IMG/VR virus record: IMGVR_UViG_3300023108_000002
DNA from: a virus
Lineage: Duplodnaviria; Caudoviricetes
DNA: 64,000 nt
Direction: 5' to 3' (one strand)
Shown piece by piece: positions 10,583 to 30,733 of the stretch. Each line of letters opens with the position of its first letter. Position 1 is the first letter of the stretch. The position numbers were made by a program, and so were the translations under genes. A model generated the notes under the pieces. The model did no database searches and was not told where the DNA came from. It saw only the letters and a list, made by a program, of their open reading frames with translations.

Positions 10583-10639
10583 TTGACATTGTGCTTGTCA
10601 GCACTTATATTAGTATTGTAAGAAGAAAGGACGAATCAT
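10583..10639 (+). promoter_or_regulatory. Early promoter/RBS cassette with GANTC
   Basis: CCTTGACA-N17-TATATTAGTA; GAAAGGA RBS; CGAATCA at 10632-10638 just before the ATG. Confidence 0.85.
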
Positions 10640-10867
10640 ATGAACACAACACCTGATGAAATAAAGTTCATTGAAAATGAAGAGTTCCGTATCTATCCAT
10701 TGACTGCTCAAGGCGAACTATCTACAATGATTCAACTTGACATGAAGGAATGGGCCCTTAAAGAGGGTCTATGGCCAGAGAAAGAATATGGAATAATCGT
10801 GTATGAACACGCGAAGGCTCGTGGGTGGACTCAAGAAGGGTTCACTGGTTTTGAATTAATCCACTAA
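10640..10867 (+). CDS. Hypothetical early protein, 75 aa
   Basis: Own promoter and RBS. Confidence 0.7.
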   Translation: MNTTPDEIKFIENEEFRIYPLTAQGELSTMIQLDMKEWALKEGLWPEKEYGIIVYEHAKARGWTQEGFTGFELIH

Positions 10868-10880
10868 TAGGAGATATAAT

Positions 10881-11204
10881 ATGCAAGTAGCAGTAATACA
10901 TGCCGCTTTTGAAGATGTACCACAAACTGTAGCGTTTGTAGAGGTTGGAAATAGAACTGGCGACGAGGCGCTTGAGTATGCGTATCGTTGGACTAATAAC
11001 GTAATGGGTTCTTGGAGTATCAAAGAACAATATCTTGGAGATGAAGTAAATGGTGATTATAACGATGATGTTACTGTCATGGCTCCTCTACATACAGACG
11101 AGAATGGAAAACAGTGGGGCTTGCGTTCAACCAGTGTTGGTGACCAAATGTTACTTGGAACAACAAAATACAAAGTTTCTGCTTTTGGGTTCAAAGAAAT
11201 CTAA
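10881..11204 (+). CDS. YodL-like domain protein
   Basis: LRSTSVGD motif resembles the YodL RSLSVGD signature; strong AGGAG RBS. Confidence 0.5.
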   Translation: MQVAVIHAAFEDVPQTVAFVEVGNRTGDEALEYAYRWTNNVMGSWSIKEQYLGDEVNGDYNDDVTVMAPLHTDENGKQWGLRSTSVGDQMLLGTTKYKVSAFGFKEI

Positions 11205-11213
11205 AAACAGCTA

Positions 11214-11270
11214 TTGACTCTTGGTTTCAGTTGTGTAATACTATATGTGTAATGAGAGAGGTGATTCGCA
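11214..11270 (+). promoter_or_regulatory. Early promoter/RBS cassette with two GANTC sites
   Basis: TTGACT overlapping GACTC (11216); GAGGTGATTCGCA before ATG 11271; the -10 element (TAATAC or TACTAT) is imperfectly spaced. Confidence 0.7.
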
Positions 11271-11474
11271 ATGATTGATACACTACTAGATGCAGAAACC
11301 TTGGAAAATGCAATCATTGCATTTGAAGAAGGTGCGAGCGATGAACGCCGTATGGCATTAGATTCTCTGCGTGGTATGTTAACACGAAAACGCACAGAAA
11401 TCATGGAATTTGAGGCTTGGTGTGACGAACAAGCTTCAATTCAAAACGAAATCTCTATGTGGGAGGAAATGTAA
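11271..11474 (+). CDS. Hypothetical early protein, 67 aa
   Basis: Cassette RBS; compact operon. Confidence 0.7.
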   Translation: MIDTLLDAETLENAIIAFEEGASDERRMALDSLRGMLTRKRTEIMEFEAWCDEQASIQNEISMWEEM

Positions 11475-12004
11475 TGAACCCTTTAGTTGCTCATATCGAG
11501 GCTCAAAACGCTGAATCTGCTGCATGGGCAGCAGAAGAAGAGGGACGCTGGGCAGGTGAAACTGTCACTGATCCAGAATTTTGGGCAGAATGTGGTGTCT
11601 ATACTGTAGAGGACTACGAAAAATATCAACTTGCGTGTAGTATTTCAGAGTCTGCAAAGACTGCATATGGACACAAATATTGGGTAGATTATGCAAACAT
11701 GTCTCTAGTGGAACTAGAGGAACTTGCAGATTCTTATGGAAACTCTGCAACCGAACAGCTTGAACGCGAAAGACAAGCAGAAGAAGAAGCAATTCTTGAG
11801 TTTGAATCTCGTATTCAAGATGTTATTAATCTTGGTGCGGGTGATCGTCAAACAGCTCTTCGTTGGATCACATCTCAAGAAACATTTTATCACCAACAGT
11901 GTGTTGAACATTTTGTTTGGGAATTGGGTGTATTATTTACTTCCTATGGCAAAGATCTCATAAAAGAACTTTTAGGAGTAGTCGAGTATAAGGAGATGGT
12001 ATGA
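11474..12004 (+). CDS. Hypothetical acidic protein, about 176 aa
   Basis: ATG overlapping the upstream stop; phage-like codon use. Confidence 0.75.
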   Translation: MNPLVAHIEAQNAESAAWAAEEEGRWAGETVTDPEFWAECGVYTVEDYEKYQLACSISESAKTAYGHKYWVDYANMSLVELEELADSYGNSATEQLERERQAEEEAILEFESRIQDVINLGAGDRQTALRWITSQETFYHQQCVEHFVWELGVLFTSYGKDLIKELLGVVEYKEMV

Positions 12005-12250
12005 GTGATTACCAATGAATTTGAGTTTGATTCGACCATAACAACTATCTTGGACGAACAAGGCAAGTTAGAAGATGTACAACTAATTATAGGCGACGAT
12101 GTTGTTTATATTCGGCAATTTAACGATCAAATTGCCGGAACAGACGTATATGATCTTATAGAAATGTCTCCGAAGATGTTTCAAGATATGATTACTGCTC
12201 TTTCTTTGGCCGATGGAGCCTTTGTAACTCTCTATAAGAGGGGAGTTTAG
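12005..12250 (+). CDS. Hypothetical protein, 81 aa
   Basis: Co-directional ORF abutting the upstream stop. Confidence 0.65.
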   Translation: MITNEFEFDSTITTILDEQGKLEDVQLIIGDDVVYIRQFNDQIAGTDVYDLIEMSPKMFQDMITALSLADGAFVTLYKRGV

Positions 12251-13001: not shown

Positions 13002-13014
13002 AAAGAAGTATAGC

Positions 13015-13058
13015 TATTTATGTAAATTATAATTCACACTTATAAAATGAAATAAATA
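13015..13058. promoter_or_regulatory. Divergent late-like promoters (CATAAATA on -, AATAAATA on +)
   Basis: One-mismatch variants of TATAAATA between the divergent genes at 13001 and 13093. Confidence 0.4.
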
Positions 13059-13092
13059 GAAATATAAACTTAAAAACATAAAGGATATTGAA

Positions 13093-14297: not shown

Positions 14298-14737
14298 TTA
14301 CAACAATTATTTTGTCTGGAATTTTGCTATCACTAGTCATTGCAGTGATAATATATCTTGCAGATGTAGATTTTATCCTCAAACTCACAGTATTGCCCTT
14401 TGCAATATTCTTTTTATCTGTATCCGGCCTCTGGATTAAAGAAAATATAGGGTCTCCAATAGAGGGAATGCCTCAGGGCGAATTTGAAATGCTTCATTAT
14501 AAAATGAAGAGTTCTGATACAATTCATCTATGGGTTTGGGAAAAAACAAGAGGCAGTAGAGTATATTTTTTCCCATATGACAGAGAAACACTAAAGAAAT
14601 TAATGGCAGCCGAAGAAAGACAAAAGGCTGGGTTTAAGATAAGGGGGAAAATGATGCCACCAAATGGAGCTGGTGGTGAATTAAGAATGGAATTGGAAGC
14701 GACGATGCCCGATAGAACACAGGGACCATCAAAATAA
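14294..14737 (+). CDS. Membrane protein with two TM helices, coupled to the ExbBD-like pair
   Basis: Hydrophobic N-terminus; ATGA overlap. Confidence 0.7.
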   Translation: MITTIILSGILLSLVIAVIIYLADVDFILKLTVLPFAIFFLSVSGLWIKENIGSPIEGMPQGEFEMLHYKMKSSDTIHLWVWEKTRGSRVYFFPYDRETLKKLMAAEERQKAGFKIRGKMMPPNGAGGELRMELEATMPDRTQGPSK

Positions 14738-14752: not shown

Positions 14753-15724
14753 ATGTTTAGATTTTTTAAAGAGCGAAAGTGGTTATTATGGAGTTGGATT
14801 GGTTCCGCAATAATCTTATCATCACTTTGGGTACAAGTACAAATTGATGTAAAAATTAATGAATGGTTTGGACAGTTTTACGACATGATCCAAAGGGCAT
14901 TAGCAGAACCTAATGCCATTACAATAGGAGAATATTGGGCCAGTCTAGCGTCCTTTATTACACTCGCAGCAATATATGTTGCAATTGCAGTCGCAATATC
15001 GTTTTTCACAGCACATTATCTGTTTAGATGGCGAACCGCAATGGTAGAATGGTATCATTCTGTCTATGATAAGGCTAGAACTATCGAAGGTGCTGCTCAA
15101 CGTGTGCAAGAAGATACTATCAAGTTTAGTAGAATTATGGAAGGCCTTGGTACTAGTTTTATTGAGTCCATTATGGTATTGATACAATTTGTGCCTATTT
15201 TACTTGGATTGAGTGTGGGAATTCCCATCTTTTTCTTTGGTGATTGGCAATACGGACTTGTAACAGGTGCATTAGTCTGGTCGATTGGGGGCACATTATT
15301 CCTCGTTGGGTTGGGATGGTTGCTGAGACTTGTAGGTGTTGAATATGACTTGCAAAAGAAAGAGGCTGCATATCGTAAAATTCTGGTGATTGCAGAGGAC
15401 GATGAGACAGTCAGGCCTAAAACTATTGAAGAATTGTTTGAAGGTGTCAGAGGCATTCATTTTAAATCCTATATAAGATACCTATACTTCAATATAGGTA
15501 GAATTGCATACTTACAGGCAAATGTCTTGAGTGCTTATGTGTTTCTTGCCCCCGCTATTGTTGCTGGTGCAGTCACATTGGGTGTAATGCAACAAATTAT
15601 TCGGGCGTTTGGTAGAGTAGAAGGTTCTATGCAGTATTTACTAAAAGCATGGCCTACCATTATTGAATTAATGAGTGTCTACAAACGACTAAGAGAATTT
15701 GAAAGACAGATACAGGAGAAATAA
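14753..15724 (+). CDS. sbmA: SbmA/BacA-like peptide transporter
   Basis: INEWFGQFYDMIQRAL, YLFRWRTAM, IEGAAQRVQEDT, YLYFN motifs; multi-TM without an ATPase domain. Confidence 0.88.
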   Translation: MFRFFKERKWLLWSWIGSAIILSSLWVQVQIDVKINEWFGQFYDMIQRALAEPNAITIGEYWASLASFITLAAIYVAIAVAISFFTAHYLFRWRTAMVEWYHSVYDKARTIEGAAQRVQEDTIKFSRIMEGLGTSFIESIMVLIQFVPILLGLSVGIPIFFFGDWQYGLVTGALVWSIGGTLFLVGLGWLLRLVGVEYDLQKKEAAYRKILVIAEDDETVRPKTIEELFEGVRGIHFKSYIRYLYFNIGRIAYLQANVLSAYVFLAPAIVAGAVTLGVMQQIIRAFGRVEGSMQYLLKAWPTIIELMSVYKRLREFERQIQEK

Positions 15725-16192: not shown

Positions 16193-16832
16193 AAAGAAAA
16201 AAGAAGAAGAAAAGATTGATTTGATTCCAAATACAATCACTCAAACTCCACCACCAGAACCAATGCCAAGAGACCTGACATTTGAAAAACAGCCAGGCAC
16301 TGTATTGAAAGAAAATGGTATTCTCTTTATGGATAAGGAGTTCAATCAAGAAAATTGTATGCCATTAGTAAAAATGATTATGGAATATAATTTGATGCCC
16401 GCACCCAAAAGGCCTCCGATTATTCATCTATATATCAATTCGCCAGGCGGAGAGGTTGCATCTGCATTTCATCTTATAGATGTAATAAAACAGTCAAAAA
16501 TACCAGTTTATACCTATGGAATGGGCTCTATAGCGTCCTGTGGTGTGCTGCTAATGATGAGTGGAGAGAAGGGACACAGATACCTAACACAGAACACAAG
16601 CATCATGTCGCATCAATACAGCTGGGGGTCAAAGGGCAAGGAACATGAATTATATGCGAAAATAAAACAATTTGAAATCTCTTCAGAGAAATTAGTTGAA
16701 CATTATGTCAAGTGTACTGGAAAAAAGAAAGATTATATCAGAAAATATTTATTACCAGAGTCTGACATATGGATGACACCAGAAGAAGCAATAAAACATG
16801 GGATTGCTGATAAAATTATAGAAACTTATTGA
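16164..16832 (+). CDS. clpP: ClpP protease proteolytic subunit
   Basis: YINSPGG, IASCG (Ser), MSHQ (His), DIWMTPEEAIKHGIADKI (Asp). Confidence 0.9.
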   Translation: MAAKTSKPNKKKKEEEKIDLIPNTITQTPPPEPMPRDLTFEKQPGTVLKENGILFMDKEFNQENCMPLVKMIMEYNLMPAPKRPPIIHLYINSPGGEVASAFHLIDVIKQSKIPVYTYGMGSIASCGVLLMMSGEKGHRYLTQNTSIMSHQYSWGSKGKEHELYAKIKQFEISSEKLVEHYVKCTGKKKDYIRKYLLPESDIWMTPEEAIKHGIADKIIETY

Positions 16833-16857
16833 CACAAATAGAATCATATAGTATATT
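16829..16857 (+). promoter_or_regulatory. Early promoter with GANTC in the spacer
   Basis: TTGACA-N17-TATATT; GAATC at 16841. Confidence 0.8.
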
Positions 16858-18769: not shown

Positions 18770-19333
18770 ATGGGTAAAAGAAGTAAATTTGAACACAGAA
18801 AAAATGACTTTTACCCAACTCCAATAGAAGCAGTCCAGCCTCTAGTGGAATTCCTTCCAAAACACATATTTAAGTTTTACGAGCCTTGTGCTGGTGATGG
18901 TAGACTTGTAAACCATCTACACAAATTGTCGCCAGGAATATCTATGGGCCACACAGATATAGACCCACAATGTGATTGGGTAGGAAAGAAAGATGCCTTT
19001 GAAGTAAAATTTCCACTCAATATAGACTATATCATCACAAATCCACCTTGGTCTCGGTGGTTGTTACATCCATTAATACTGCACTTTTCTAAACAAGCAC
19101 CCACTTGGCTACTGTTTGATGCTGACTGGATTCACACAAAACAGGCAGTCCAATATCTACCTCTTTGTAAAAAAGTGGTATCTATTGGGCGTGTTAAGTG
19201 GATAGAGGACAGTAAGCACACTGGTAAAGATAATAGTTGCTGGTATTTATTTGATTATAATGATACTACTAGTGAAACTACATTTCATCCAAACCCAAAA
19301 TGGACACAAGAATGCTTACAAATCCCGATTTAG
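18770..19333 (+). CDS. Orphan amino (N6-adenine-type) DNA methyltransferase
   Basis: NDFYPTP, motif I YEPCAGDG preceding motif IV IITNPPW. Confidence 0.85.
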   Translation: MGKRSKFEHRKNDFYPTPIEAVQPLVEFLPKHIFKFYEPCAGDGRLVNHLHKLSPGISMGHTDIDPQCDWVGKKDAFEVKFPLNIDYIITNPPWSRWLLHPLILHFSKQAPTWLLFDADWIHTKQAVQYLPLCKKVVSIGRVKWIEDSKHTGKDNSCWYLFDYNDTTSETTFHPNPKWTQECLQIPI

Positions 19334-20824: not shown

Positions 20825-21065
20825 GACAAAGCTCATACTCATCACAGATTTTATCGAACAAAAATTGAGAAAAGAAAAAGAATTAGAATATTATTTGAAA
20901 GAATTGGAAGAACTTCAGCGTAAAATTGGATATTTGCGCCAAGAAGTAAATCTTACCAACACAATTATCAACATGATAAAGACAGATACGATATATGATA
21001 TCAAAGAAAAGATGCTCACTGAAGAAAAGGTGATACAATTACCAGAGGAAGATATAGATGCCTGA
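20814..21065 (+). CDS. Hypothetical coiled-coil protein, 83 aa
   Basis: Overlapping, co-directional. Confidence 0.65.
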   Translation: MTNETKLILITDFIEQKLRKEKELEYYLKELEELQRKIGYLRQEVNLTNTIINMIKTDTIYDIKEKMLTEEKVIQLPEEDIDA

Positions 21066-21157
21066 TTGGATGCTCATTGGATTGCTTGTTTTGGCTGTTT
21101 GTGTCATAATTCTTATCACGGAATTGATAGAATCATGGTGGACAGGAAGAAAATAAA

Positions 21158-21283
21158 ATGACAGATGATGAAATTCGTGAAATGATAGAAATGTTTCCAA
21201 ATCTACCTAACCCCACTCACTATCCACAGACATTTCTCTACTATGTGAACCTGTATCGTTTTCTAAAATCTTTCGGGAACTAA
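21158..21283 (+). CDS. Hypothetical protein, 41 aa
   Basis: Hand-found (MTDDEIREMIEMFPNLPNPTHYP...). Confidence 0.45.
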   Translation: MTDDEIREMIEMFPNLPNPTHYPQTFLYYVNLYRFLKSFGN

Positions 21284-21556
21284 TTTTGCAACAAATTGCT
21301 CATAGCCACCGACATATTCCCACTCTCCATTTACTTCTGCCCAGATTTGAGGCACAGTCTTAGGACGAGCTCCTGTTGAAAACTCTTTTTCATAATCATT
21401 GACAAGCATTGCTTTCACTCTGGTGGATTGAATATCATATTCATCAATCTCAATACCACGATCTTTACAGAGTGCTGCCGTTGCTTTACAGTATCCACAA
21501 TTCTCTTTTGTGTACATTCTAATTCGTGCTACATTCATCTTACAAATCTCCATCAT
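21263..21556 (-). CDS. Glutaredoxin
   Basis: CGYC active site, TVPQIW cis-Pro loop, YVGGY. Confidence 0.9.
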   Translation of the reverse strand: MMEICKMNVARIRMYTKENCGYCKATAALCKDRGIEIDEYDIQSTRVKAMLVNDYEKEFSTGARPKTVPQIWAEVNGEWEYVGGYEQFVAKLVPERF

Positions 21557-21568
21557 AATATATAGGGT

Positions 21569-21754
21569 ATGTCACAAGAGAAAAAAATAAGCATTGTCGA
21601 TAAAGTTCTGCTAGTCATCATTGTTGTTGTATGGCTAGATCAAGAATTTTTCAAATTCACAGAACCCTCTCATAAGAAATTTCTTTCATTCTTTGAGCCA
21701 ACAACTTCTGTTGTTCACGCTTTTCTTCGATTAGGTGAAAAACCGCTAAAATAG
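21569..21754 (+). CDS. Hypothetical membrane protein, 61 aa
   Basis: Single hydrophobic stretch; divergent from glutaredoxin. Confidence 0.45.
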   Translation: MSQEKKISIVDKVLLVIIVVVWLDQEFFKFTEPSHKKFLSFFEPTTSVVHAFLRLGEKPLK

Positions 21755-21757
21755 TTC

Positions 21758-21786
21758 TTGACACGAAAGAACGAATCATCTATACT
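21758..21786 (+). promoter_or_regulatory. Early promoter with GANTC 3 bp upstream of the -10 element
   Basis: TTGACA-N17-TATACT; CGAATCA at 21772-21778. Confidence 0.88.
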
Positions 21787-21815
21787 GATAATGTAGAAAG
21801 AAAAAGGAAATTCTT

Positions 21816-22022
21816 ATGAACCTACCTCTTGAAATTGGCCAGTCATTCATTCGTCGCTATTCAGACTATGTTGCAACAGGAGAGATCACTTCGATTTCCA
21901 CTGATGCCGATGACGAAACTCTGATCACTGTGATGTTTGACGATGGTGCGGTAAAAGTCTACACCGAAAACTGCATAGAGCAAAACTTGGGCCGCCGCAT
22001 GATAGTTTTAGATGATGCATAA
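21816..22022 (+). CDS. Hypothetical early protein, 68 aa
   Basis: Own promoter; AAGGA RBS. Confidence 0.7.
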   Translation: MNLPLEIGQSFIRRYSDYVATGEITSISTDADDETLITVMFDDGAVKVYTENCIEQNLGRRMIVLDDA

Positions 22023-22197
22023 TTTCTCGCTTCTAGATTGTATGATGATACTCATATTTTCTCACTTGCTTTATTTTAGTGTTCTACTTCTATTTCTCAC
22101 AGGAAGTCCAGGCGCAACAATTCTCGGCTGGTTCTTTTGGGAGATATGGAAAGGTTATGAAAAATGGAGATTGACAAATGACAACTATTTTACATAA
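22012..22197 (+). CDS. Hypothetical membrane protein, 61 aa
   Basis: Hydrophobic; overlapping operon. Confidence 0.5.
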   Translation: MMHNFSLLDCMMILIFSHLLYFSVLLLFLTGSPGATILGWFFWEIWKGYEKWRLTNDNYFT

Positions 22198-22438
22198 GTC
22201 TGGCCCACAACCTTGGGAAGCCAACAAACAAACTTCATCTTCCAACAAGCCTCCATACGCAATCATGATCGAGTTCGATAATGACGAATGGATGTATGTC
22301 TGTGAAGGATCACAATGGCAAGAATCAAAGGACAATCCAGTACTCTATGATACATATGAAGAAGCTCTAGAAGCATCTAAAGTCTGGAATAATCCTCGCA
22401 TAGTTTCTTATCATATTTCCGCTGCTGACCGCGGCTAG
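22178..22438 (+). CDS. Hypothetical protein, 86 aa
   Basis: GGAG RBS; co-directional. Confidence 0.6.
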   Translation: MTTILHKSGPQPWEANKQTSSSNKPPYAIMIEFDNDEWMYVCEGSQWQESKDNPVLYDTYEEALEASKVWNNPRIVSYHISAADRG

Positions 22439-22707
22439 ACCGGAGCCCATTTTCTCTCTTTCTAAGGAGTTTCAAATGATACGAGAAAGGGTTTCACAAT
22501 GAGGAAGAATTTTGCCTTTTTTGGAGTAAATTATATATAACTGTATGACAGGATTTATGAAGAAAAGAAAAGGTAAATATATTGCATATGACGCCAATGG
22601 AAAGGTGCTCATAATCTCACGATCTTTGACTGTATGTAAGGAAGTCTTAGCGAGTATAATGAATAATGAAAGAGAACATTTGAATGAATCAGAAAAAGAA
22701 AAATATT

Positions 22708-23007
22708 ATGCAAGGATACGACAAGAAGAAACATCCGATACTTGAGCTTGAACAGAACATCTTAGACTGTTGGAAAGTCTGTGATGATATTGACTTGGTC
22801 TGGAAGGAAATGTATGATGGAAATCCAGAACCAACTGAAGATCAGATTGCCAATGCTATGATAGGATTGAATCAGATCTATGAGTGGAAATTTCAGAGAC
22901 TTTGGAATAATTTCGAAGAAGTCTTGAAGAAGAATTCCGAGCCGCCGGATACCCATGAGAATGATGGCGAGAATTGGGAAAAATGGAGATTGAATGATGG
23001 AGATTGA
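22708..23007 (+). CDS. Hypothetical protein
   Basis: Helical acidic ORF; start uncertain (22684 or 22708). Confidence 0.6.
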   Translation: MQGYDKKKHPILELEQNILDCWKVCDDIDLVWKEMYDGNPEPTEDQIANAMIGLNQIYEWKFQRLWNNFEEVLKKNSEPPDTHENDGENWEKWRLNDGD

Positions 23008-23198
23008 TGGGAAAAGATGGGGAAAATTGGGATTCTTAGGGATATGATTTTCAGGAATCCGCTGCAGATTCTAGCTTTTGGGGGTTTAGCGAATATTTGA
23101 GACTGTTGAGTAAATCCCCCAGCCTTTTTTCTGAGCCGCCTGAGAGATGCCGCTGAGAATTTCTGCCAAAATATTTTAAAAAAAATGCCGAATTGCCC

Positions 23199-23227
23199 TT
23201 GACATTTCATTGCGAATCACTTATATT
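23199..23227 (+). promoter_or_regulatory. Early promoter with GANTC 3 bp upstream of the -10 element; no downstream ORF
   Basis: CCTTGACA-N17-TATATT; CGAATCA at 23213-23219. Confidence 0.88.
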
Positions 23228-23237
23228 AATATATGTA

Positions 23238-23454
23238 AGAAGAAAAGATTTTAGACTCTTTTCCTCATATGTCCGTGCGGAGGGCAGGCCACCTGAAAGC
23301 ACGATCTCTGGTGAATATATTCGCCCGTGAAATATCGGTGACGTGAAACCCAGAGATGTTAGTTTCAATCAAACTAGAGCGGCAACGTCAATAAGTCCGT
23401 GCGGAGAGATTGGAGATACTAGCTGGGCGTATGAGGAAAAAAGTTTTTCTTCTT
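23238..23454 (+). ncRNA. Candidate structured ncRNA, about 217 nt, family not identified
   Basis: 16-bp helix 23259-23274/23425-23440; outer helix 23238-23247/23445-23454; inner helices 23304-23311/23350-23357 and 23360-23365/23371-23376; GTCCGTGCGGAG twice; promoter upstream and terminator downstream. Confidence 0.7.
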
Positions 23455-23484
23455 TTCCCTGTCTCCTTTCTATATGGGTAACTT

Positions 23485-23517
23485 AGAGCAGTCCTTCTTT
23501 GGCTGCTCTTTTTTTTT
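23485..23517 (+). terminator. Intrinsic terminator
   Basis: AGAGCAG...CTGCTCT stem followed by a long T tract. Confidence 0.85.
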
Positions 23518-23538
23518 GAAAAAAGTTTTAAAAAGCTC

Positions 23539-23567
23539 TTGACAGTGGCCGATTATAATGTTACTAT
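23539..23567 (+). promoter_or_regulatory. Sigma70-type promoter
   Basis: TTGACA-N17-TACTAT; no GANTC. Confidence 0.75.
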
Positions 23568-23600
23568 GGCTATGCTAGCCAATAATGATTAGGAGATTAA

Positions 23601-23873
23601 ATGAGTATCGAATCATTAGCAGAAATTGCTGAATTAAATGCCTTACATGGAGTCTCTCCAGAAGAAGCTAGATTGAAATTCTTTGAGAATTTAAATGCTT
23701 CAATCATCAGAGATTACTTTGAAAAAGATATGGCATGTCCCTGTGATGAATGCCCATTAAGAGACTCTTGTGCAGAGAGTTATGCAGAGTGTTCAGCATT
23801 TAGAAACTGGGCAGTAAAAGGACAATACGATGAGGCCACAATTGGAAAACATTTGAGAGTTCCTAAAGACTGA
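23601..23873 (+). CDS. Cys-rich metal-binding hypothetical protein, 90 aa
   Basis: CPCDECPLRDSC...EC; monocistronic between a promoter and a terminator. Confidence 0.7.
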   Translation: MSIESLAEIAELNALHGVSPEEARLKFFENLNASIIRDYFEKDMACPCDECPLRDSCAESYAECSAFRNWAVKGQYDEATIGKHLRVPKD

Positions 23874-23894
23874 CCTTAGAAGAAAGTTTCTATC

Positions 23895-23926
23895 AAAAAA
23901 CCCTCTAGAGATTCTAGAGGGTTTTT
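23895..23926. terminator. Bidirectional intrinsic terminator
   Basis: AAAAACCCTCTAGA-GAT-TCTAGAGGGTTTTT. Confidence 0.85.
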
Positions 23927-24310
23927 GCGTATCTGGGGGTGACTTCAAGCTAAAAGCTTATGAGCAATTATTTATAATTCTGTGAATCTCATCTGCTAGA
24001 AATGAATAGAAAAGTTACAAAGAGTGCCCATATGAGCATCTTTTAGAGAGTTTCTGAGAGTTTCTGAAGTAGGGTCCCGGCAAAGCTTTCGTACAGCTTT
24101 AGCTCAGTTTAGCTTTCGTGACTTGAATTAGATACCCCCCTAAACCTCAGCGTGTATCTTTAAATTTGTGGGTTCCCATCTGGAATGAGGCGGAAGTGTA
24201 TAGCACCAGCCCCCCAGAATCTTTCAGTGTTTCTAAAAGTTTTTCCGAAAAAAATTTTTTTTGCTGGCTAAAAACCCAAAACCCTTTTTGGTAAGATCCT
24301 ACATATTCAC

Positions 24311-24652
24311 ATGGAAGTCAAAGAGGCATATCGTTTGTTCTGGCTCGTCAAGGGTCATTTGAATTCTCCACACGAAACCATCATGGCATCTGCGAATGGA
24401 TATTTCAAAAGAGTCTGGTATGATTTCGCGGGAGAGGATATGTCTATATGGGAAGTGGGGTTTGAAGAAGAATGGGAGAGAGTTATGTCTTTTCAAGCAC
24501 AAAAAGAAATCATCTATCATTTGACTTGTAAGGTCTGTAAGGGATATTTTACTTATGCTACTATGAATGAGCATTATGATATAGAAAGAGGCCACATGTA
24601 TTGTCCTACATGCGGCCATAGTGGTTCTGCTAAGTTAGAAGAAAGTGTTTAG
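24311..24652 (+). CDS. Hypothetical protein with a C-terminal Zn ribbon (possibly two fused small genes)
   Basis: CKVC...CPTC; internal Met (MSFQAQKE) could be a second start. Confidence 0.6.
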   Translation: MEVKEAYRLFWLVKGHLNSPHETIMASANGYFKRVWYDFAGEDMSIWEVGFEEEWERVMSFQAQKEIIYHLTCKVCKGYFTYATMNEHYDIERGHMYCPTCGHSGSAKLEESV

Positions 24653-24734
24653 TAGAGATACATAGAGATCAGTCCTATGATAAGGACGATTGAGAAAATT
24701 TCAGAAGAGACTTCTATCAAGAGGTCTTTTAGCA

Positions 24735-24905
24735 TCACTGTGTTCCTTCTAGTTGTTGTAGACACATTTCAAAATCGGCAATCATTCCTTCCGCGGCTTC
24801 TACAGCACGGGAATCTCCCATTGCGCGATACTCTAAGATATTTTGACGACAAGCATCAATGTATCCAAGGATTGAGTTACGAAAATTTTCAACTTCAGTA
24901 GACAT
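24735..24905 (-). CDS. Hypothetical early protein, 56 aa
   Basis: Hand-found (MSTEVENFRNSILGYIDAC...); own promoter and AAAGGTGATTCGAAATG RBS. Confidence 0.7.
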   Translation of the reverse strand: MSTEVENFRNSILGYIDACRQNILEYRAMGDSRAVEAAEGMIADFEMCLQQLEGTQ

Positions 24906-24963
24906 TTCGAATCACCTTTCTTTGTCACTCTACTATGTTATGATATTTGTAGAGAGCTGTCAA
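24906..24963 (-). promoter_or_regulatory. Early promoter/RBS cassette (inverted)
   Basis: TTGACA-N17-TAACAT; AGGTGATTCGAA before the ATG. Confidence 0.85.
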
Positions 24964-24971
24964 GAGCAAAA

Positions 24972-25169
24972 TTAGCAAAAGACAACTCTCAAAACTTCAC
25001 CTCTTTCGCCGAAGAGTGTGTGAACAACTCTGTGAAGATGCCTTTGTGCGAGTCTGCATTCGAACCATGCTTCCGCTTCTGCCAAAGTCTCAACAACAAG
25101 AGCAGGCATTGCCAAAGTTCCCATCACAGGACACAAAGTGGTGATCGTAGTTCTTACTTCATATGTCAT
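24972..25169 (-). CDS. Hypothetical early protein, 65 aa
   Basis: Own promoter/RBS cassette. Confidence 0.7.
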   Translation of the reverse strand: MTYEVRTTITTLCPVMGTLAMPALVVETLAEAEAWFECRLAQRHLHRVVHTLFGERGEVLRVVFC

Positions 25170-25227
25170 TTCGAATCACCTCTCTCTTATTATGTCTAAC
25201 TATACCACACAAAAAGGAATCTGTCAA
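25170..25227 (-). promoter_or_regulatory. Early promoter/RBS cassette (inverted) with two GANTC sites
   Basis: TTGACA-GATTC...N17-TATAGT; GAGGTGATTCGAA before the ATG. Confidence 0.88.
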
Positions 25228-25230
25228 CCC

Positions 25231-25458
25231 CTAAAATGACTCATAATACCAAGATGGTATCGGTTTATGGGTTATTTCAGTAACTCCCCAACTCTCAAAC
25301 CTTCCATTTTTGATTGCCTCTATGGCATTTTTCTTTGTTTTGAAAGGACAATTAGGCATCATGATTGGTTCGATGTTTTCATCCACAACAACCCAACCAT
25401 ACCAACCTTTTTTGGGAGTCGGCCATGTCCAAGTGTTTTTTACAACTCTTACTTTCAT
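25231..25458 (-). CDS. Hypothetical protein, 75 aa
   Basis: Downstream of the sigma region 4 gene in the same transcript. Confidence 0.55.
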   Translation of the reverse strand: MKVRVVKNTWTWPTPKKGWYGWVVVDENIEPIMMPNCPFKTKKNAIEAIKNGRFESWGVTEITHKPIPSWYYESF

Positions 25459-25470
25459 AATGTATCAGAC

Positions 25471-25716
25471 TTACGCAGCAATGTCAACTAAAATCGAGCG
25501 AAGATCCGCAGAACGCGAAGGATGTTTCAGTTTCCGTTCGGCTTTGGCTTGGATTTGACGAATGCGCTCAACAGACAAGTTCATAATGCATCCGATTTCG
25601 CCGAGAGTGTGCTGCCCGACACCGTTCAGTCCGTAGCGCATTCGAATGACACGCTCTTCTCTGGGGGAGAGAGTAAGAAGAGTTGTACGAAGAATGTCTG
25701 AGTCGTTCTTAATCAT
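25471..25716 (-). CDS. Stand-alone RpoD (sigma70) region 4 protein, 81 aa
   Basis: LSPREERVIRMRYGL...HTLGEIG...SVERIRQIQAKAERKLKHPSRS..LRSIL aligns end to end with primary-sigma region 4 including the C-terminal tail; no regions 1-3. Confidence 0.9.
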   Translation of the reverse strand: MIKNDSDILRTTLLTLSPREERVIRMRYGLNGVGQHTLGEIGCIMNLSVERIRQIQAKAERKLKHPSRSADLRSILVDIAA

Positions 25717-25774
25717 TTCGAATCACCTTTCTCTTATTACTCTTATAATCTAACAGATTCATAGAGAAAGTCAA
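25717..25774 (-). promoter_or_regulatory. Early promoter/RBS cassette (inverted) with two GANTC sites
   Basis: CCCTTGACT-N16-TAGATT with TG extension; GAATC 3 bp before the -10; AAAGGTGATTCGAA before the ATG. Confidence 0.85.
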
Positions 25775-26039
25775 GGGCTTTTTTTAGCCTGCTTGAATGT
25801 AGATGTATTCGGAATTTTCTAGAGTAGGAAAGTTGGAAACATTTTGCAGATCGACTTTGCGAACAAAGTGGCCGTGGTGAATGACATACCACCACCTTTG
25901 TTGATCTGGAATGCTGTCTCCTTGAAGATATATCTTTCCCATACTGAAACATATTTATTTTTAGCGGTCAAAAGCAGCGGGTCAAATCCAAGGAATTCTA
26001 ACATAAATTATATTGTGAGGTATTAGAAGGAAATACTCT

Positions 26040-26525
26040 ATGGAAAATCAGAATCAAAATAAGAAACTTTGGAAAAAGGTAAAGAAAATGGATTTAGGAA
26101 ACCCTGCCGTCACGGCACTAGTAGGTCTGGTAATATTCTATATCGGATTAAAAACATTCTCTGGGGGCATGAAGGCCATGGGAAACATGGAGCATCTTTC
26201 GTTTTTCTTGGGAAATCCACTGTATATGTTCTTTGGTGGAATCATCATGACTTTGTTGTGGCAATCGTCAAGCTTGAGTACAACCGCCATCATTGCGTTG
26301 GTTGCGTCTGGTGCCTTGCCGCTTCCGGCAGCGATTGGAGCAGTTCTAGGAGCGAACATCGGAACAACAGGAACCATCTGGCTTGCGGGAATTTTTGTTT
26401 CTGATGGCATGCCGAAGGGAGACACACTACGAATTGCGATGGCACATACAGGAGCGAACCTTCTAATGGCTATCATGTTGTTGCCGTTTGTTGGCCAGAT
26501 TGCTAAATATTTGAGCAAATTTTAG
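26040..26525 (+). CDS. Na+/Pi cotransporter family protein, single repeat (161 aa)
   Basis: WQSSSLST and GANIGTT signature motifs; hydrophobic. Confidence 0.88.
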   Translation: MENQNQNKKLWKKVKKMDLGNPAVTALVGLVIFYIGLKTFSGGMKAMGNMEHLSFFLGNPLYMFFGGIIMTLLWQSSSLSTTAIIALVASGALPLPAAIGAVLGANIGTTGTIWLAGIFVSDGMPKGDTLRIAMAHTGANLLMAIMLLPFVGQIAKYLSKF

Positions 26526-26826
26526 CCACAGGCCCTTGACTTCTTTGCTCAAATGACTTATATTAGTAGTGTAAGTAATGAAAGGTGATTCGTAATGACA
26601 AGAGAGGAATTTTTTGAGTGGTTGGAGACTTGCCCCACGCATAAACACAACATTACATTTGATGAGTTTGATTTTGTGACTGTGTGCTTTCCAATTGAAG
26701 AAGAGGAAGAAGAGAGCGCGGCATAAACCGAACACATCCCCCAAATTTTAGCCACAGGCCCTTGACTTTTGAGTTCGAATCGCATATATTAGTAGTATAA
26801 GTAATGAAAGGTGATTCGTAATGACA
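26517..26826 (+). repeat. Two 84-bp direct repeats (26517-26600 and 26743-26826) each carrying promoter, RBS and start codon
   Basis: AAATTTTAGCCACAGGCCCTTGACTT...TATATTAGTAGTRTAAGTAATGAAAGGTGATTCGTAATGACA; copies differ almost only in the -35/-10 spacer. Confidence 0.92.
26595..26726 (+). CDS. Hypothetical acidic peptide, 43 aa
   Basis: Hand-found (MTREEFFEWLETCPTHKH...) between the two repeats. Confidence 0.65.
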   Translation: MTREEFFEWLETCPTHKHNITFDEFDFVTVCFPIEEEEEESAA

Positions 26827-27162
26827 CAGACTGCTAAAGAATTCATAGATGAAATGAACTACTTCGATACATATGGAAGTGGTTGTGGATTTGAGACACG
26901 TTGGTCTATCTATGGTGAAAATATCAAAATGGGAGAGAACCATCCCTTTCAAACTCCCATGACGATTCAGAACAAATGTGATGTTTGGGGATATGATTCC
27001 TCTGCTGTTTGTAATGGTAAAACGTGGGGAGATCTCTGGCAGACATGTGAAACTGTCATACGCAATTCAGTGGATAGTGATGGTAATAGAGATCATCACA
27101 TCTTTATTGAAGATTTAGAAGCGCAAGGTAATGGCGTTTGGAACTTGGTAACAGGGAGCTAA
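26821..27162 (+). CDS. Hypothetical early protein, 113 aa
   Basis: Own cassette; HHIFIE motif. Confidence 0.75.
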   Translation: MTQTAKEFIDEMNYFDTYGSGCGFETRWSIYGENIKMGENHPFQTPMTIQNKCDVWGYDSSAVCNGKTWGDLWQTCETVIRNSVDSDGNRDHHIFIEDLEAQGNGVWNLVTGS

Positions 27163-27165
27163 ATT

Positions 27166-27357
27166 ATGAACTCTAACTTAAAAACTTTTATGGATTCTGT
27201 GTGGACTGCTACACAAATCTCCGGCAACACTGTTGTTGATCGTCGTGTTTGTTTTGGTGGAAATCCAGACATTCAATTCACTGTCGAACTTCCCAATGGG
27301 GAATTTGATTTTGTATCTGCTGTTGACATGTTTGAAGTGGGGGTAGAATTCTCATGA
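27166..27357 (+). CDS. Hypothetical protein, 63 aa
   Basis: Compact operon. Confidence 0.6.
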   Translation: MNSNLKTFMDSVWTATQISGNTVVDRRVCFGGNPDIQFTVELPNGEFDFVSAVDMFEVGVEFS

Positions 27358-27584
27358 CCATATATCCTGATTTTGATATCATTGTAACTGATGGCATTCC
27401 TTTACATGGCAGCCCTCAAGACAGAGGTTCTGCCGATCGTTATTATCACCGTTCTTTTGACCCCCACTACTGGCCACTAGGCACATACAAAGGTGAGCGT
27501 GTTGAAAAAGATAACATGACTGTTGGTGAGATTGAGGCTTATCGTTATGGCTGGGATAACGAAAAAGATCGTAAGGAGTGGTAA
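27354..27584 (+). CDS. Hypothetical protein, 76 aa
   Basis: ATGA overlap; HGSPQDRGSAD.YY pattern. Confidence 0.65.
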   Translation: MTIYPDFDIIVTDGIPLHGSPQDRGSADRYYHRSFDPHYWPLGTYKGERVEKDNMTVGEIEAYRYGWDNEKDRKEW

Positions 27585-27784
27585 TGTTTCGAATAATATT
27601 TTACTCGGCTGCGTTTGGCCTGGGCGGAGCAATGATTGTGAATTCGTTTTTGAACATGTTGGAAATGCCTGACGTGCATTTTTCATATTCAAGTGGCGAA
27701 TGTGTTCGAGTTCTGAATTACACTGATGAAGTTTTCACTTGTGAAAACCTTCCAGAGAGATTTCATCATGTGTGGGTCGAATAA
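27584..27784 (+). CDS. Hypothetical membrane-anchored protein
   Basis: N-terminal TM helix; C...C pair. Confidence 0.6.
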   Translation: MFRIIFYSAAFGLGGAMIVNSFLNMLEMPDVHFSYSSGECVRVLNYTDEVFTCENLPERFHHVWVE

Positions 27785-27929
27785 TTTTTTTCAAGAAGGC
27801 GTAGATGCACATGCTTCTGGCCTTCTTTGGAAAGATAATCCATATAAAGAAGATTCTTTTGAATATTCTGAGTGGAAAAAAGGTTGGGATGCTCGTATGA
27901 CGTGGTGTTTAGAAAATGCATACACATAA
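27768..27929 (+). CDS. Rmf/CrpP-like small protein
   Basis: EGVDAHASG...NPY...W..GW resembles the ribosome modulation factor fold signature. Confidence 0.45.
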   Translation: MCGSNNFFQEGVDAHASGLLWKDNPYKEDSFEYSEWKKGWDARMTWCLENAYT

Positions 27930-27958
27930 ATATTTTAATGAAACTGAAGGTGACAGTA

Positions 27959-28279
27959 ATGACGCAAATGAATTTTGATTTTTTTGATGAAAAATCTACA
28001 CAAATGTCAGAAAATCTTGTAAATTTAAATGAGGCACTTGATGGAACGGCAACTTTAACTGACTTCGAAACATATTTGAAAGAAAGAATGTATGATGCTG
28101 AGTATAAATTGCATCTTTCAGAACAAGCTCTTACAAACATTGGACTTGAACTCAAAAATTTTCTAGAAATTTATGAACATTCTTGGAATGGATCGCATGA
28201 AGTCAAAGAAATGATTGAGACAATAGACAATTATTTTGATATTAGTTCTAAAATTACAATCAAAGAGGAAAAAAAATGA
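27959..28279 (+). CDS. Hypothetical protein
   Basis: Helical ORF; GAAGG RBS. Confidence 0.6.
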   Translation: MTQMNFDFFDEKSTQMSENLVNLNEALDGTATLTDFETYLKERMYDAEYKLHLSEQALTNIGLELKNFLEIYEHSWNGSHEVKEMIETIDNYFDISSKITIKEEKK

Positions 28280-28497
28280 TTTCTATGTCAGTTGTAATCG
28301 GGTTCGGCATTTATCTTTGTGTCGCACTATACTTTAGTATGAAATCTGCCCATAAAACTGGATATGTACAAGGACTACAGGATATATTAACTTCAGTTGA
28401 AGAGGCTCTCGACCATGATAGGTCAAAAATTGATAGTCTTTATGAAAAAATGGCAAAAAATAAAGGAATGAGAGTAGAAATTTCAGAAGAAATTTAA
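28276..28497 (+). CDS. Hypothetical membrane-anchored protein, 73 aa
   Basis: N-terminal TM helix; ATGA overlap. Confidence 0.6.
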   Translation: MISMSVVIGFGIYLCVALYFSMKSAHKTGYVQGLQDILTSVEEALDHDRSKIDSLYEKMAKNKGMRVEISEEI

Positions 28498-28506
28498 TAA
28501 AAGCCC

Positions 28507-28536
28507 TTGACAAATCCCCTCAAATGTGACAGAATC
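28507..28536 (+). promoter_or_regulatory. Probable early promoter with GANTC overlapping the -10 region
   Basis: GCCCTTGACA -35; weak TG-N-CAGAAT -10; GAATC at 28532. Confidence 0.55.
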
Positions 28537-28565
28537 ATATTGTATTTGATGATAGAGGTAAAAAA

Positions 28566-29000
28566 ATGGTTCACTTCGACAATTTATATGTCTCTGGTTC
28601 CGGCTCTCGCAAAAGAAAACTCGCATATCAAGTTGCTGAGTTCGTAAAATCTCAAATTTTCCCTAGAACACAAGGTGTGATGCTGGAAATTCAGCTCATT
28701 TCGAAGCTTTCTGAGAAAGAAGGCGTCCTTGGCGATTGTATGGATGAAGATGATCGCGAATATACAGTCAGAATTGATAGTTCTTTGGATAGAGAAACTT
28801 TTATCAAGACTCTTTGTCATGAATTAGTTCATGTAAAACAATATGCAAAGAATGAACTACGTCAAATTACTTTCAAAACACACAAATGGCATCGTAAAAC
28901 TTTGATGGGCGATCTAGAATATCATGAGCGTCCTTGGGAAATCGAAGCATTTTCAATGGAAGATGAATTAGCTGAAAAATTTGGAGAAAATAATGAGTAA
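28566..29000 (+). CDS. Zincin-type (HExxH) metallopeptidase-like protein
   Basis: TLCHELVHVKQY...PWEIEAF. Confidence 0.75.
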   Translation: MVHFDNLYVSGSGSRKRKLAYQVAEFVKSQIFPRTQGVMLEIQLISKLSEKEGVLGDCMDEDDREYTVRIDSSLDRETFIKTLCHELVHVKQYAKNELRQITFKTHKWHRKTLMGDLEYHERPWEIEAFSMEDELAEKFGENNE

Positions 29001-29322
29001 AATGGGAAATTATGTTGTAGAATTAATGGAAACTGGACTTTGGGAAGAGGACGAAAATCCTTCTGAACCAAATTTTGATGAATATTATAGCGAACAGCTG
29101 TCTAGATTCAAGCATGAATTGAGAGATTGTATGCAATCTAGAAATATTACTTGGAAAGAGGCACTAACTTTTTTATATCAAACCGAAGAAGATGATTATG
29201 AACTCTTTGATATAGAGGAAGATGCATATTGTTACCAAAAACTTGAACATTTTCTTTATAAATGGGATTTACAGGAAAGAAAAATTGATGAAATATGTAA
29301 AAAATTCTTCATTAGCCCTTGA
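28993..29322 (+). CDS. Hypothetical acidic protein
   Basis: Overlapping, co-directional. Confidence 0.65.
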   Translation: MSKMGNYVVELMETGLWEEDENPSEPNFDEYYSEQLSRFKHELRDCMQSRNITWKEALTFLYQTEEDDYELFDIEEDAYCYQKLEHFLYKWDLQERKIDEICKKFFISP

Positions 29323-29386
29323 CTTCTTTGCTCAAATGACTTATATTAGTAGTGTAAGGTAAAAAAACATAGGAGATTCTTACGTT
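29315..29386 (+). promoter_or_regulatory. Early promoter cassette; 44 bp identical to 26532-26575
   Basis: GCCCTTGACTTCTTTGCTCAAATGACTTATATTAGTAGTGTAAG; AGGAGATTC RBS containing GANTC. Confidence 0.9.
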
Positions 29387-29812
29387 ATGGCATATGTTTC
29401 ACAAGACATGAAAAAAGCTCTTGCCCCTGCAATTAAAAATGTACTAAAACAGTACGGTATGAAAGGCACGATTGGTGTTAACAACCATTCTTCTTTGGTT
29501 GTGAATATTAAAGAAGGTGTTCTTGACTTGATTGGAATTGCAAATGCAAAAAATCAAGAGATTGCTGAACGGCGGAATATGCCTTACTATGAATGTAACG
29601 GATACTTTCAGGCAAATCCCTACCATTCCGATCAATATGGAGAAGCTTCTTCTTTCTTTGAAGATTTGGTTGCGGCAATGAAAGGTGCGTTTACAAACGG
29701 TGGTCCCAAATGGTATGATAACAGTGATGCAATGATTGATTACTTTGATACTGCATACTATTTGGACATCAATGTTGGAAAATGGAACAAGCCTTACGTT
29801 TGTACGGCTTAA
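29387..29812 (+). CDS. Conserved hypothetical early protein, 141 aa
   Basis: Own cassette; DAMIDYFDTAYY motif resembles polyvalent-protein-associated domains. Confidence 0.75.
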   Translation: MAYVSQDMKKALAPAIKNVLKQYGMKGTIGVNNHSSLVVNIKEGVLDLIGIANAKNQEIAERRNMPYYECNGYFQANPYHSDQYGEASSFFEDLVAAMKGAFTNGGPKWYDNSDAMIDYFDTAYYLDINVGKWNKPYVCTA

Positions 29813-29829
29813 ACAATAAGGAGTGATAT

Positions 29830-29988
29830 ATGTGGTATGTTCAGTATGAACTTGCTGATGGTTCAAATGAAACTTTTCGATATGAGGGCTTGACACAAGA
29901 GCAGGCGCGTGAAATCCATCGTCAATGGTCTGGTTGGAACACCAAATATGTCCAATCAGGAAGGATGGATTTAGGATATGGTAAATAA
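29830..29988 (+). CDS. Hypothetical protein, 52 aa
   Basis: Hand-found (MWYVQYELADGSNETF...); AGGAG RBS. Confidence 0.55.
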   Translation: MWYVQYELADGSNETFRYEGLTQEQAREIHRQWSGWNTKYVQSGRMDLGYGK

Positions 29989-30193
29989 AATACAGCGCAT
30001 GGTCGTCCCGCTAATGGACGAATTGCAATGGTGCATGGAGAACAACGCACACTTGGAAGACCCCGATAGGGTCTCTGCTATAATTGATAGGGTCAGTATC
30101 TATATTGCACATTTAACAGATGAAGATAGTGACTATCTACATGCTGCTCAAGATGCGATAGAGGAAGGTCGCGAATGGAACGTGAAGAAATAA
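29978..30193 (+). CDS. Hypothetical protein, 71 aa
   Basis: Overlapping, co-directional. Confidence 0.6.
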   Translation: MVNKIQRMVVPLMDELQWCMENNAHLEDPDRVSAIIDRVSIYIAHLTDEDSDYLHAAQDAIEEGREWNVKK

Positions 30194-30322
30194 CACAGTT
30201 AAAAGAAATTCGTGATGTTTTTTTAAAAATGTATCATGAAACTAAAAAACCTGATATAAGTATTGATATGTCTTTTTTAAGGCTTCATAATATTATATCA
30301 AGATTAGAAGAGGATACATTAA

Positions 30323-30517
30323 ATGGCAGATAAAGAAATTTCTATTAGAGTTGGAAAACTTTATTCTAAAGGACTTGATTATGATGATGCTCAGAAAGAA
30401 TTTTTGAGCCATGCTTCTGATAAAGAAAAATCATTATTAGAAAATCAATTTGATGAAGTTTGGAATGAATATGAGCACATGTATCTTTCAACTCTTTCTT
30501 TTATGAGTAACAAATGA
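30323..30517 (+). CDS. Hypothetical protein, 64 aa
   Basis: GAGGA RBS. Confidence 0.55.
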   Translation: MADKEISIRVGKLYSKGLDYDDAQKEFLSHASDKEKSLLENQFDEVWNEYEHMYLSTLSFMSNK

Positions 30518-30708
30518 GCATAGATTATTACGCAGACAAATTATATGATGTGCAGATAGATACCGTAAAAGGAGATGTTATTTTAGGTGGTGTTTTCTTT
30601 ATAGAAGATAGTCCAAAAGAGGCATATATTTTTGAGCGAGCTTACATTATGGGAAGAGAACATAAAAAAGCTCAAGTGATTAATATTCTTTCAAAGAAAA
30701 CTTCTTGA
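30514..30708 (+). CDS. Hypothetical protein, 64 aa
   Basis: ATGA overlap. Confidence 0.55.
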   Translation: MSIDYYADKLYDVQIDTVKGDVILGGVFFIEDSPKEAYIFERAYIMGREHKKAQVINILSKKTS

Positions 30709-30733
30709 CAGAATCGGAGTTATTTGATATAAA
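30705..30733 (+). promoter_or_regulatory. Sigma70 promoter of the tRNA cluster with GANTC right after the -35
   Basis: TTGACA-GAATC...N17-TATAAA. Confidence 0.85.

Follow-up and report, generated by a model that had tools for sequence, protein, structure and literature searches.

The DNA analyzed here, hereafter the window, is a 64,000-bp stretch of the virus record IMGVR_UViG_3300023108_000002 (IMG/VR), from a large T4-like (Kyanoviridae-type) myophage with a G+C content of 36%. A subset of its early σ70-type promoters carries a box with a GANTC core. From the motif, position, flanks, conservation, and lineage distribution of the box, we favor, on balance, the reading that these are putative GcrA boxes, which would recruit host GcrA–RNA polymerase (RNAP). 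The box trait extends to a clade of phages beyond the window.

GANTC sites in early promoters of the window and its relatives

Twenty credible σ70-type promoters lie between 7 and 41 kb of the window, and 13 of them have GANTC between the −35 element and the start codon. An earlier examination of the letters without database searches (the sequence-only reading) had listed 18 promoters, 13 of them with GANTC; the 13 are borne out, and the promoter total is corrected to 20. All the GANTC sites that it listed exist. GAATC ends 3 bp before the −10 element at positions 21773, 23214, and 26777 on the plus strand and 25756 on the minus strand, and GANTC abuts the −35 element at 30711 (plus) and 25217 (minus). 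The sequence AGGTGATTCGNAATG precedes six start codons (11271, 26595, and 26821 on the plus strand; 24905, 25169, and 25716 on the minus strand), and additional GANTC sites are located at 10633, 11216, 16841, 28532, and 29375. The promoters at 7139, 20200, 23539, 35228 (transfer-messenger RNA, tmRNA), 39769, and 40746 (gp32) have no GANTC between the −35 element and the start.

The enrichment of GANTC is real but local. The window as a whole contains 198 sites in 64,000 bp, in agreement with the previous estimate of ~0.2 chance sites per 60 bp, and GANTC is slightly under-represented (222–258 sites expected from Markov models of order 1–3). To define promoter-proximal DNA, we took the spacers and 50 nt of leader, left out sites overlapping the hexamers, and derived the expectation from the genome's own GANTC density. 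Such segments contain 18 sites where 4.4 are expected (P ~1e-6), and GANTC ranks first among the 136 reverse-complement pentamer classes of the form abNcd. The comparison of promoters with background, proposed in the sequence-only reading, thus gives a local enrichment, not a window-wide one. The more specific 7-mer YGAKTCG (either strand) occurs 22 times in the window (~12–15 expected), and ten of these sites fall between a −35 element and a start codon, in ~1.2 kb of DNA where ~0.2 are expected. All but one of the ten read TGATTCG or, in complement, CGAATCA.

Relatives were retrieved from IMG/VR via gp32 and the 141-aa protein encoded at 29387–29812 of the window, and four large contigs were taken in full together with the phages Melnitz and HTVC008M. 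Of 23 promoter-like sites in the window, 11 have GANTC (4.2 expected) and eight have the 7-mer (0.5 expected). In contig G001, whose gp32 is 86% identical, GANTC is present in eight of 16 promoter-like sites (2.5 expected) and the 7-mer in four (0.25 expected). The numbers are 19 of 43 promoter-like sites with GANTC (7.6 expected) and six with the 7-mer (0.7 expected) for the 141-kb contig G409, and 17 of 52 (6.2 expected) and seven (0.7 expected) for the 161-kb contig G411. Melnitz, which infects OM43, not an alphaproteobacterium, has 51 promoter-like sites, four of them with GANTC (9.2 expected) and none with the 7-mer. HTVC008M, a Pelagibacter phage, has 40 promoter-like sites with neither GANTC nor the 7-mer. 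Among the 136 classes, GANTC ranks first in promoters of the window, second in G411, fourth in G001, sixth in G409, and 129th in Melnitz. The trait recurs across lineages at ~40% protein identity. In G002–G004 promoter GANTC is at expectation, and the trait is absent there.

Throughout the genome of HTVC008M (NC_020484.1), only 43 GANTC sites are present where 299 are expected, and YGAKTCG is absent. This purge is far stronger than the depletion in the SAR11 host sample (0.55 of expectation). In SAR11 cells, something appears to select against GANTC in this phage. The genome of Sinorhizobium phage phiM12 (NC_027204.1) is 2-fold depleted of GANTC (540 observed, 1084 expected), and, by inspection only, several copies of a phiM12 promoter family with a common TCATAGAGAG leader have GANTC directly after CTTGAC (for example, minus-strand sites near 57968, 158441, and 192371). 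Rhizobiophages with a host known to encode CcrM and GcrA may also show the phenomenon. The fixed pattern TTGAC-N14-GAWTC was found in neither phiM12 nor phiN3.

To locate the box, we assembled a pool of 428 non-identical promoter-like sites, drawn from the window and from 83 related loci, and numbered them from the −10 hexamer, set as −12 to −7. The GANTC centers peak sharply at −19 (26 sites) and −18 (nine sites), with further modes at −26/−27 and a broad leader mode at +17 to +21; a peak at −31 is trivial, as it comes from TTGACTC. The −19/−18 sites occur in many unrelated spacers, ~12 such promoters being found in G411 alone, and some promoters have two sites, one abutting the −35 element and one at −19. 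The distance from the box to the −10 element is better kept than that to the −35 element, the box starting at spacer base 8 in 16-bp spacers and at base 10 in 17-bp spacers. Single-linkage clustering of the pooled promoters at 70% identity gives 317 clusters, of which 26 have a site centered at −21 to −17 (4.0 expected). With all GANTC sites in the compared genomes as background, YGAKTCK on one strand describes 23 of these 26 sites (background 27%, P 6e-11), and the stricter YGAKTCG describes 15 (background 10%, P 4e-9).

The orientation of the box changes while its consensus is retained. Orthologous promoters of the same gene have TGATTCG in locus L341, CGATTCG in L321, and CGAATCA in L334, and L295 reads TGATTCG where the window reads CGAATCA. 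Retention of the consensus despite the flips suggests a near-palindromic site acting at the DNA level and speaks against a signal in RNA or a contact with the polymerase that is asymmetric. The proposal of the sequence-only reading that early promoters carry CcrM/GcrA-type sites is supported by the flanks, the −19/−18 peak, the flips, the lineage pattern, and the presence of GcrA and CcrM genes in candidate hosts. Its statement that the sites occupy fixed positions is overstated for the window alone, where the boxes are located at −27, −21, −18, over the −10 element, and at ~+17 to +38; the −19/−18 peak emerges from the pooled promoters of the clade.

Comparison with GcrA boxes and the presumed host

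The phage promoters resemble the GcrA/CcrM-dependent σ70 promoters of Caulobacter crescentus, which have a GANTC core, YGAKTCK flanks, and TGATTCG as the best site (PMC4647560, PMC9976885, PMC3667746). Among CcrM-methylated GANTC sites, GcrA prefers TGATTCG and, more broadly, YGAKTCK (Haakonsen 2015, PMC4647560), and the consensus that MEME gives for the sites bound by GcrA in Caulobacter is TGATTCG (PMC4647560). The GcrA boxes of activated promoters have their centers in the spacer at −20 ± 1 or −30 ± 2, or else lie at +5 to +30 (Wu 2023, PMC9976885); the PcsM box reads GAATC on the same strand and spans −22 to −18 (PMC9976885). In both systems, the box is single at each site, takes either orientation, and is part of an otherwise ordinary σ70 promoter; counted from presumed starts, the phage boxes would also resemble those of Caulobacter in their place, ~20 bp before the start in the −35/−10 spacer or a short way past the start. 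The phage boxes match the GcrA core, flanks, and prevailing strand. In addition, the constancy of the box-to-(−10) distance is in line with the tethering of GcrA to σ70 region 2, which binds the −10 element. The phage promoters, known here from sequence alone, differ in lying on a lytic T4-like phage genome and not on the host chromosome, in having −35 and −10 elements near the Escherichia coli consensus in AT-rich DNA, and in the fusion of their leader boxes to the Shine–Dalgarno (SD) sequence.

A search for gcrA or ccrM homologs, also suggested in the sequence-only reading, found none in the window, five relatives, Melnitz, or HTVC008M. A GcrA-type reader would therefore have to be made by the host. 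The box of the proposed mechanism has the core GANTC, which nearly always reads GAATC or GATTC, and YGAKTCK-type flanks. It is placed just upstream of the −10 element (center −19/−18), at times against the −35 element (~−27), and/or in the leader ~17–21 nt past the presumed start, overlapping the SD sequence. As in Alphaproteobacteria, GcrA on σ70 region 2 would read sites that CcrM has N6-methylated and would aid polymerase binding and promoter opening. The boxes would most likely draw host GcrA-loaded RNAP to the tRNA cluster, to a likely small RNA, and to accessory genes of the early class. The core replication promoters (gp32, gp59, tmRNA) have no box.

The host is likely a GcrA-positive alphaproteobacterium, judging from gene content. 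An SbmA/BacA-like transporter is encoded at 14753–15724 on the plus strand (Pfam, 465 bits), and its protein shares 83–91% identity with the products of chromosomal genes in marine Alphaproteobacteria, among them SAR11 and SAR116-like ones (84–86% in complete Pelagibacter genomes; 88–91% in a group of single-cell genomes of ~2 Mb and 38% GC). Since the DNA flanking the matches is unrelated to the phage, they are host loci rather than phage contigs. The phage gene, which adjoins ClpP-fold and MotA/ExbB-like genes, seems to have been taken from a host recently. Seven of nine SbmA-matching genomes encode GcrA, the DNA-binding and σ-binding domains of which align closely with Caulobacter GcrA, and all five genomes tested encode full-length CcrM (E 1e-138 to 4e-151 against PDB 6PBD). 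In samples of these genomes, GANTC is ~2-fold depleted and the 7-mer 4–5-fold. The depletion fits the results of Gonzalez et al. (PMC3973325), whose paper also lists CcrM for SAR11, and Brilli et al. place Pelagibacter in a cluster with both CcrM and GcrA (PMC2877005). The tmRNA of the window is of the alpha type. Three other routes to the host were tried and rejected: matches of a σ region-4 mimic are scattered over Acidobacteria, Rickettsiales, and others and are uninformative; comparison of the tmRNA with 400 alphaproteobacterial genomes matches only the conserved tRNA-like core; and gp32 in bacterial genome bins gives only 47–57% matches, in mis-binned contigs.

Several points weigh against the GcrA reading. 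The copied promoter cassettes described below inflate the counts within the window. Some close relatives (L287–L292, G002, and G003) lack the 7-mer, and a CcrM-positive host alone does not yield the trait, as HTVC008M, the only cultured relative that infects SAR11, lacks promoter boxes and is purged of GANTC; promoter boxes are one strategy, not a rule, for phages of CcrM/GcrA-positive hosts. As for the host, SbmA is too conserved to single out one lineage, and the tmRNA is a weak clue because Melnitz carries an alpha-type tmRNA too, although its host is not an alphaproteobacterium (PMC9004378). Methylation alters the binding of GcrA to duplex DNA only ~1.4–2-fold in vitro (PMC4647560). The modes of the phage boxes, at −19/−18 and −26/−27 from presumed starts, are 1–3 bp off the Caulobacter modes. 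A Mom-family protein encoded at 33302–34156 on the plus strand (PF25680, E 4e-48) suggests adenine hypermodification of the phage DNA, and the modified bases made by such an enzyme could block CcrM or GcrA. Finally, the center base of the promoter sites, unlike that of the Caulobacter boxes, is almost always A or T (GAATC or GATTC), though GcrA also accepts GAGTC. This bias may be explained by AT-rich spacers; that it reflects avoidance of Mom-type target contexts is only a guess. The reported target context of Mu Mom would include GASTC, not GAWTC.

The sequence-only reading had also suggested that early promoters read methylation as a timer, or read the host cell cycle; both are speculation. 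The timer is weakened by the small effect of methylation on the affinity of GcrA for duplex DNA. It also meets the difficulty that, should replication dilute methylation, packaged genomes would start the next infection largely unmethylated. We consider it unlikely that a broad marine/estuarine T4-like clade lacking MotA/AsiA has a class of early promoters that is both fired by host GcrA-loaded RNAP and tuned by CcrM methylation. If it were so, accessory early expression would depend on the cell-cycle or epigenetic state of the host, early expression could decay as unmethylated phage DNA builds up (an epigenetic early shut-off), and the box would be a sequence-only marker of a GcrA-positive alphaproteobacterial host for an uncultured phage.

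Coupling of phage promoters to host N6-adenine methylation has a precedent in the Dam-dependent promoters of Mu mom and P1 cre. These involve GATC and Dam, exclusion of an OxyR-type repressor, and Gammaproteobacteria. The promoters described here differ in having GANTC, a proposed σ-bound activator, and a whole promoter class. Phage expression is also tied to host cell-cycle regulators in alphaproteobacterial phages with CtrA-box promoters (Mascolo 2022, PMC9437464) and in phiCbK-like phages with GcrA homologs (Gill 2012, PMC3556154). The window differs from the former in having GcrA-type sites, not CtrA sites, and from the latter in having cis sites without a gcrA gene. The window and its relatives come from T4-like myophages of marine waters. 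Our literature search found no paper that combines GANTC with phage early promoters. If the GcrA reading is correct, a lytic phage would here, for the first time, be seen to use the epigenetic control of GcrA/CcrM with cis sites only. For early-gene timing in cyanophage-like T4 phages without MotA/AsiA, a box read by a host cofactor offers a concrete, testable mechanism. The patchy pattern (present in four diverged lineages, absent from the OM43 phage, purged in the SAR11 phage) suggests that the box tracks host biology, and the box could help to assign hosts to abundant uncultured marine phages.

Promoter cassettes and other readings of the box

Several promoters of the window are copies of one promoter–leader cassette of ~75 nt. 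The cassettes at 26536 and 26762 are identical except for the spacer and one other base, the first 45 nt of the cassette at 29319 are the same as in 26536, and a minus-strand trio is similar. An alignment of ten promoter–leader cassettes has a mean column identity of 64%, with near-identical pairs among them. Because the cassettes are near-identical, the six AGGTGATTCGNAATG copies in ribosome-binding sites (RBSs) represent fewer than six events. The twin cassettes, 26536 without and 26762 with a spacer box, form a natural control pair. The arrangement resembles the PeSL cassettes of T4-like phages (Arbiol 2010, PMC2839356; Comeau 2014, PMC4122927), in which a repeated early promoter borders small ORFan genes in hyperplastic regions, and the conserved promoter cassettes probably mediate shuffling, as in PeSL. 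The window differs in having no consistent stem-loop beside its promoters (no common hairpin was found in folds of the 60 nt upstream of 13 promoters), and a GANTC box is not a described PeSL feature. A metatranscriptome contig (run X16) matches only the 31-bp promoter core at 23198–23228, including CGAATCA, and diverges on both sides. The presence of this promoter in another gene context in a related phage is consistent with cassette-mediated shuffling. A scan of IMG/VR for the 15-mer RBS found mostly single chance matches, with two copies only in the relative G001.

The signal exceeds cassette copying, because four 7-mers outside RBSs (at 10632, 21772, 23213, and 26776) stand in unrelated flanks, a significant excess over the ~0.2 expected, and because the form GGTGATTCG is found only just downstream of promoters, in the window and in relatives. 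The latter point also bears on whether the leader copies (AGGTGATTCGNAATG) act in RNA, by extended SD pairing with 16S rRNA or as a site for an RNase or a translational repressor. We regard this as possible though improbable; it would concern the leader subset only and could coexist with reading at the DNA level. AGGUGAUUC is predicted to pair with 3'-UCCACUAGG-5' of the 16S tail through eight Watson–Crick pairs and one G–U pair, the leader box is in the sense orientation in all 13 copies from the window, G001, G409, and L295, and its spacing to the ATG is constant. Against a role in RNA, none of the GGTGA-type SD sequences of genes inside operons (for example, those at 18770 and 27959) is lengthened by TTCG to GGTGATTCG. 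Moreover, the two relatives G001 and G409 keep TGATTCG without the AGG prefix, following AAAG, and the same 7-mer is present in untranscribed spacers.

The main rival to the GcrA reading is another reader of the same box: a real promoter element acting at the DNA level, with no role for methylation, that is recognized by a phage or virion-injected factor, by another host protein, or by the polymerase itself via a lineage-specific spacer element. That the box has a function follows from its position and conservation; what reads it does not. In the G411 lineage it forms part of a longer conserved sequence, MGAATCR-TGn-TATAAT, which could be an extended promoter consensus, many early open reading frames (ORFs) are of no known function, and HTVC008M lacks boxes despite a GcrA-positive host. 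Nevertheless, we consider such a reader rather unlikely. The consensus that the flanks match was obtained independently, from chromatin immunoprecipitation of GcrA in Caulobacter, and the 7-mer occurs in both spacer and leader, as GcrA boxes do. Both orientations at one position would be unusual for an asymmetric polymerase contact, and Melnitz, with its non-alphaproteobacterial host, is without the trait. In addition, early promoters have to fire before any phage protein exists, unless the factor is injected.

That the sites have no function, hitch-hiking in duplicating or gene-converting PeSL-like cassettes with the rest due to chance, would fit the near-identical cassettes and the contig that has only the 23198–23228 core in common, but is very improbable and largely excluded, as spacer sites stand in otherwise unrelated spacers, the sites are still enriched once the RBS copies are taken out and the promoters clustered at 70% identity, the consensus persists through the orientation flips, and the trait recurs in distant lineages.

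Individual promoters and neighboring genes

On the plus strand, the early promoter TTGACA-17-TATATT at 10583–10611 has CGAATCA at 10632–10638, between the SD sequence and the ATG of a 75-aa gene (10640–10867). In the promoter at 11214–11268, GACTC (11216–11220) overlaps the −35 element and TGATTCG (11262–11268) is part of the RBS of a 67-aa gene starting at 11271. The promoter at 16829–16857, upstream of a 55-aa gene from 16872, has AGAATCA in its spacer (GAATC 16841–16845, center ~−21). CGAATCA is centered at ~−18 in two promoters: at 21772–21778, ending 3 bp before the −10 element, in the promoter at 21758–21786 of a 68-aa gene from 21816, and at 23213–23219 in the promoter at 23199–23227, which drives an ORF-less unit of ~250 nt. 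The twin promoters follow. That at 26536–26592 has no box in its spacer and TGATTCG at 26586–26592 in the RBS of a 43-aa gene from 26595, and that at 26762–26818 has CGAATCG in the spacer (26776–26782, center ~−18) and TGATTCG at 26812–26818 in the RBS of a 113-aa gene from 26821. Farther downstream, AGAATCA (GAATC 28532–28536) lies over the presumed −10 element of the promoter at 28507–28536, which drives the gene starting at 28566. The leader GATTC (29375–29379) of the cassette at 29319–29379, upstream of the 141-aa gene from 29387, has flanks off the GcrA consensus. In the promoter of the tRNA cluster (30705–30733), GAATC at 30711–30715 (AGAATCG) directly follows the −35 element (center ~−27). 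The gp32 promoter at 40746–40774 (plus) is an example of the class without a box.

On the minus strand, the promoter at 25774–25747 has GAATC at 25756–25760, 3 bp before the −10 element, and TGATTCG at 25719–25725 in the RBS of an 81-aa protein. The promoter at 25227–25199 has GATTC (25217–25221) abutting the −35 element and TGATTCG at 25172–25178 in the RBS of a 65-aa gene from 25169, and the promoter at 24963–24935 has TGATTCG at 24908–24914 in the RBS of a 56-aa gene from 24905. The 81-aa protein (25471–25716, minus strand), which thus has its own box-bearing early promoter, consists of σ70 region 4 only (PF04545, 54 bits). The protein may compete for −35 recognition or for the β flap, or serve as a decoy.

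The ORF-less unit (23199–23517, plus strand) has a consensus promoter with CGAATCA and a strong terminator at 23485–23509. Metatranscriptome contigs span 23283–23471, with a depth of 37x in run X18, the highest within 21000–29000. The unit is likely a small RNA.

Comparison with INPHARED found no near-identical phage, and a look-up of gene calls by exact protein match gave no record; the best matches of gp32 (40821–41726) among isolates are cyanophages, at 57% identity. Gp59 is encoded at 40063–40737 and PhoH at 36742–37461. The alpha-type tmRNA is two-piece and permuted (35213–35586, plus strand; tag ANDNFAPSEFALAA). Its promoter at 35228 is of the extended −10 type without a box, and it is directly upstream of a small gene (35610–35963), a layout shared with Melnitz-like phages. 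The window has six tRNA genes, and baseplate and tail genes are located at both of its ends. Metagenomes from salt marsh and from 'freshwater' (probably estuarine) sites contain the phage DNA, and metatranscriptome assemblies contain parts of the early region, in which many ORFs have no known function, as assembled contigs and hence without 5' ends. The early hyperplastic region is immediately preceded, at 8225–10134 on the plus strand, by a gene of the GMP reductase/IMPDH family (PF00478) and one for a class-3 lipase (PF01764).

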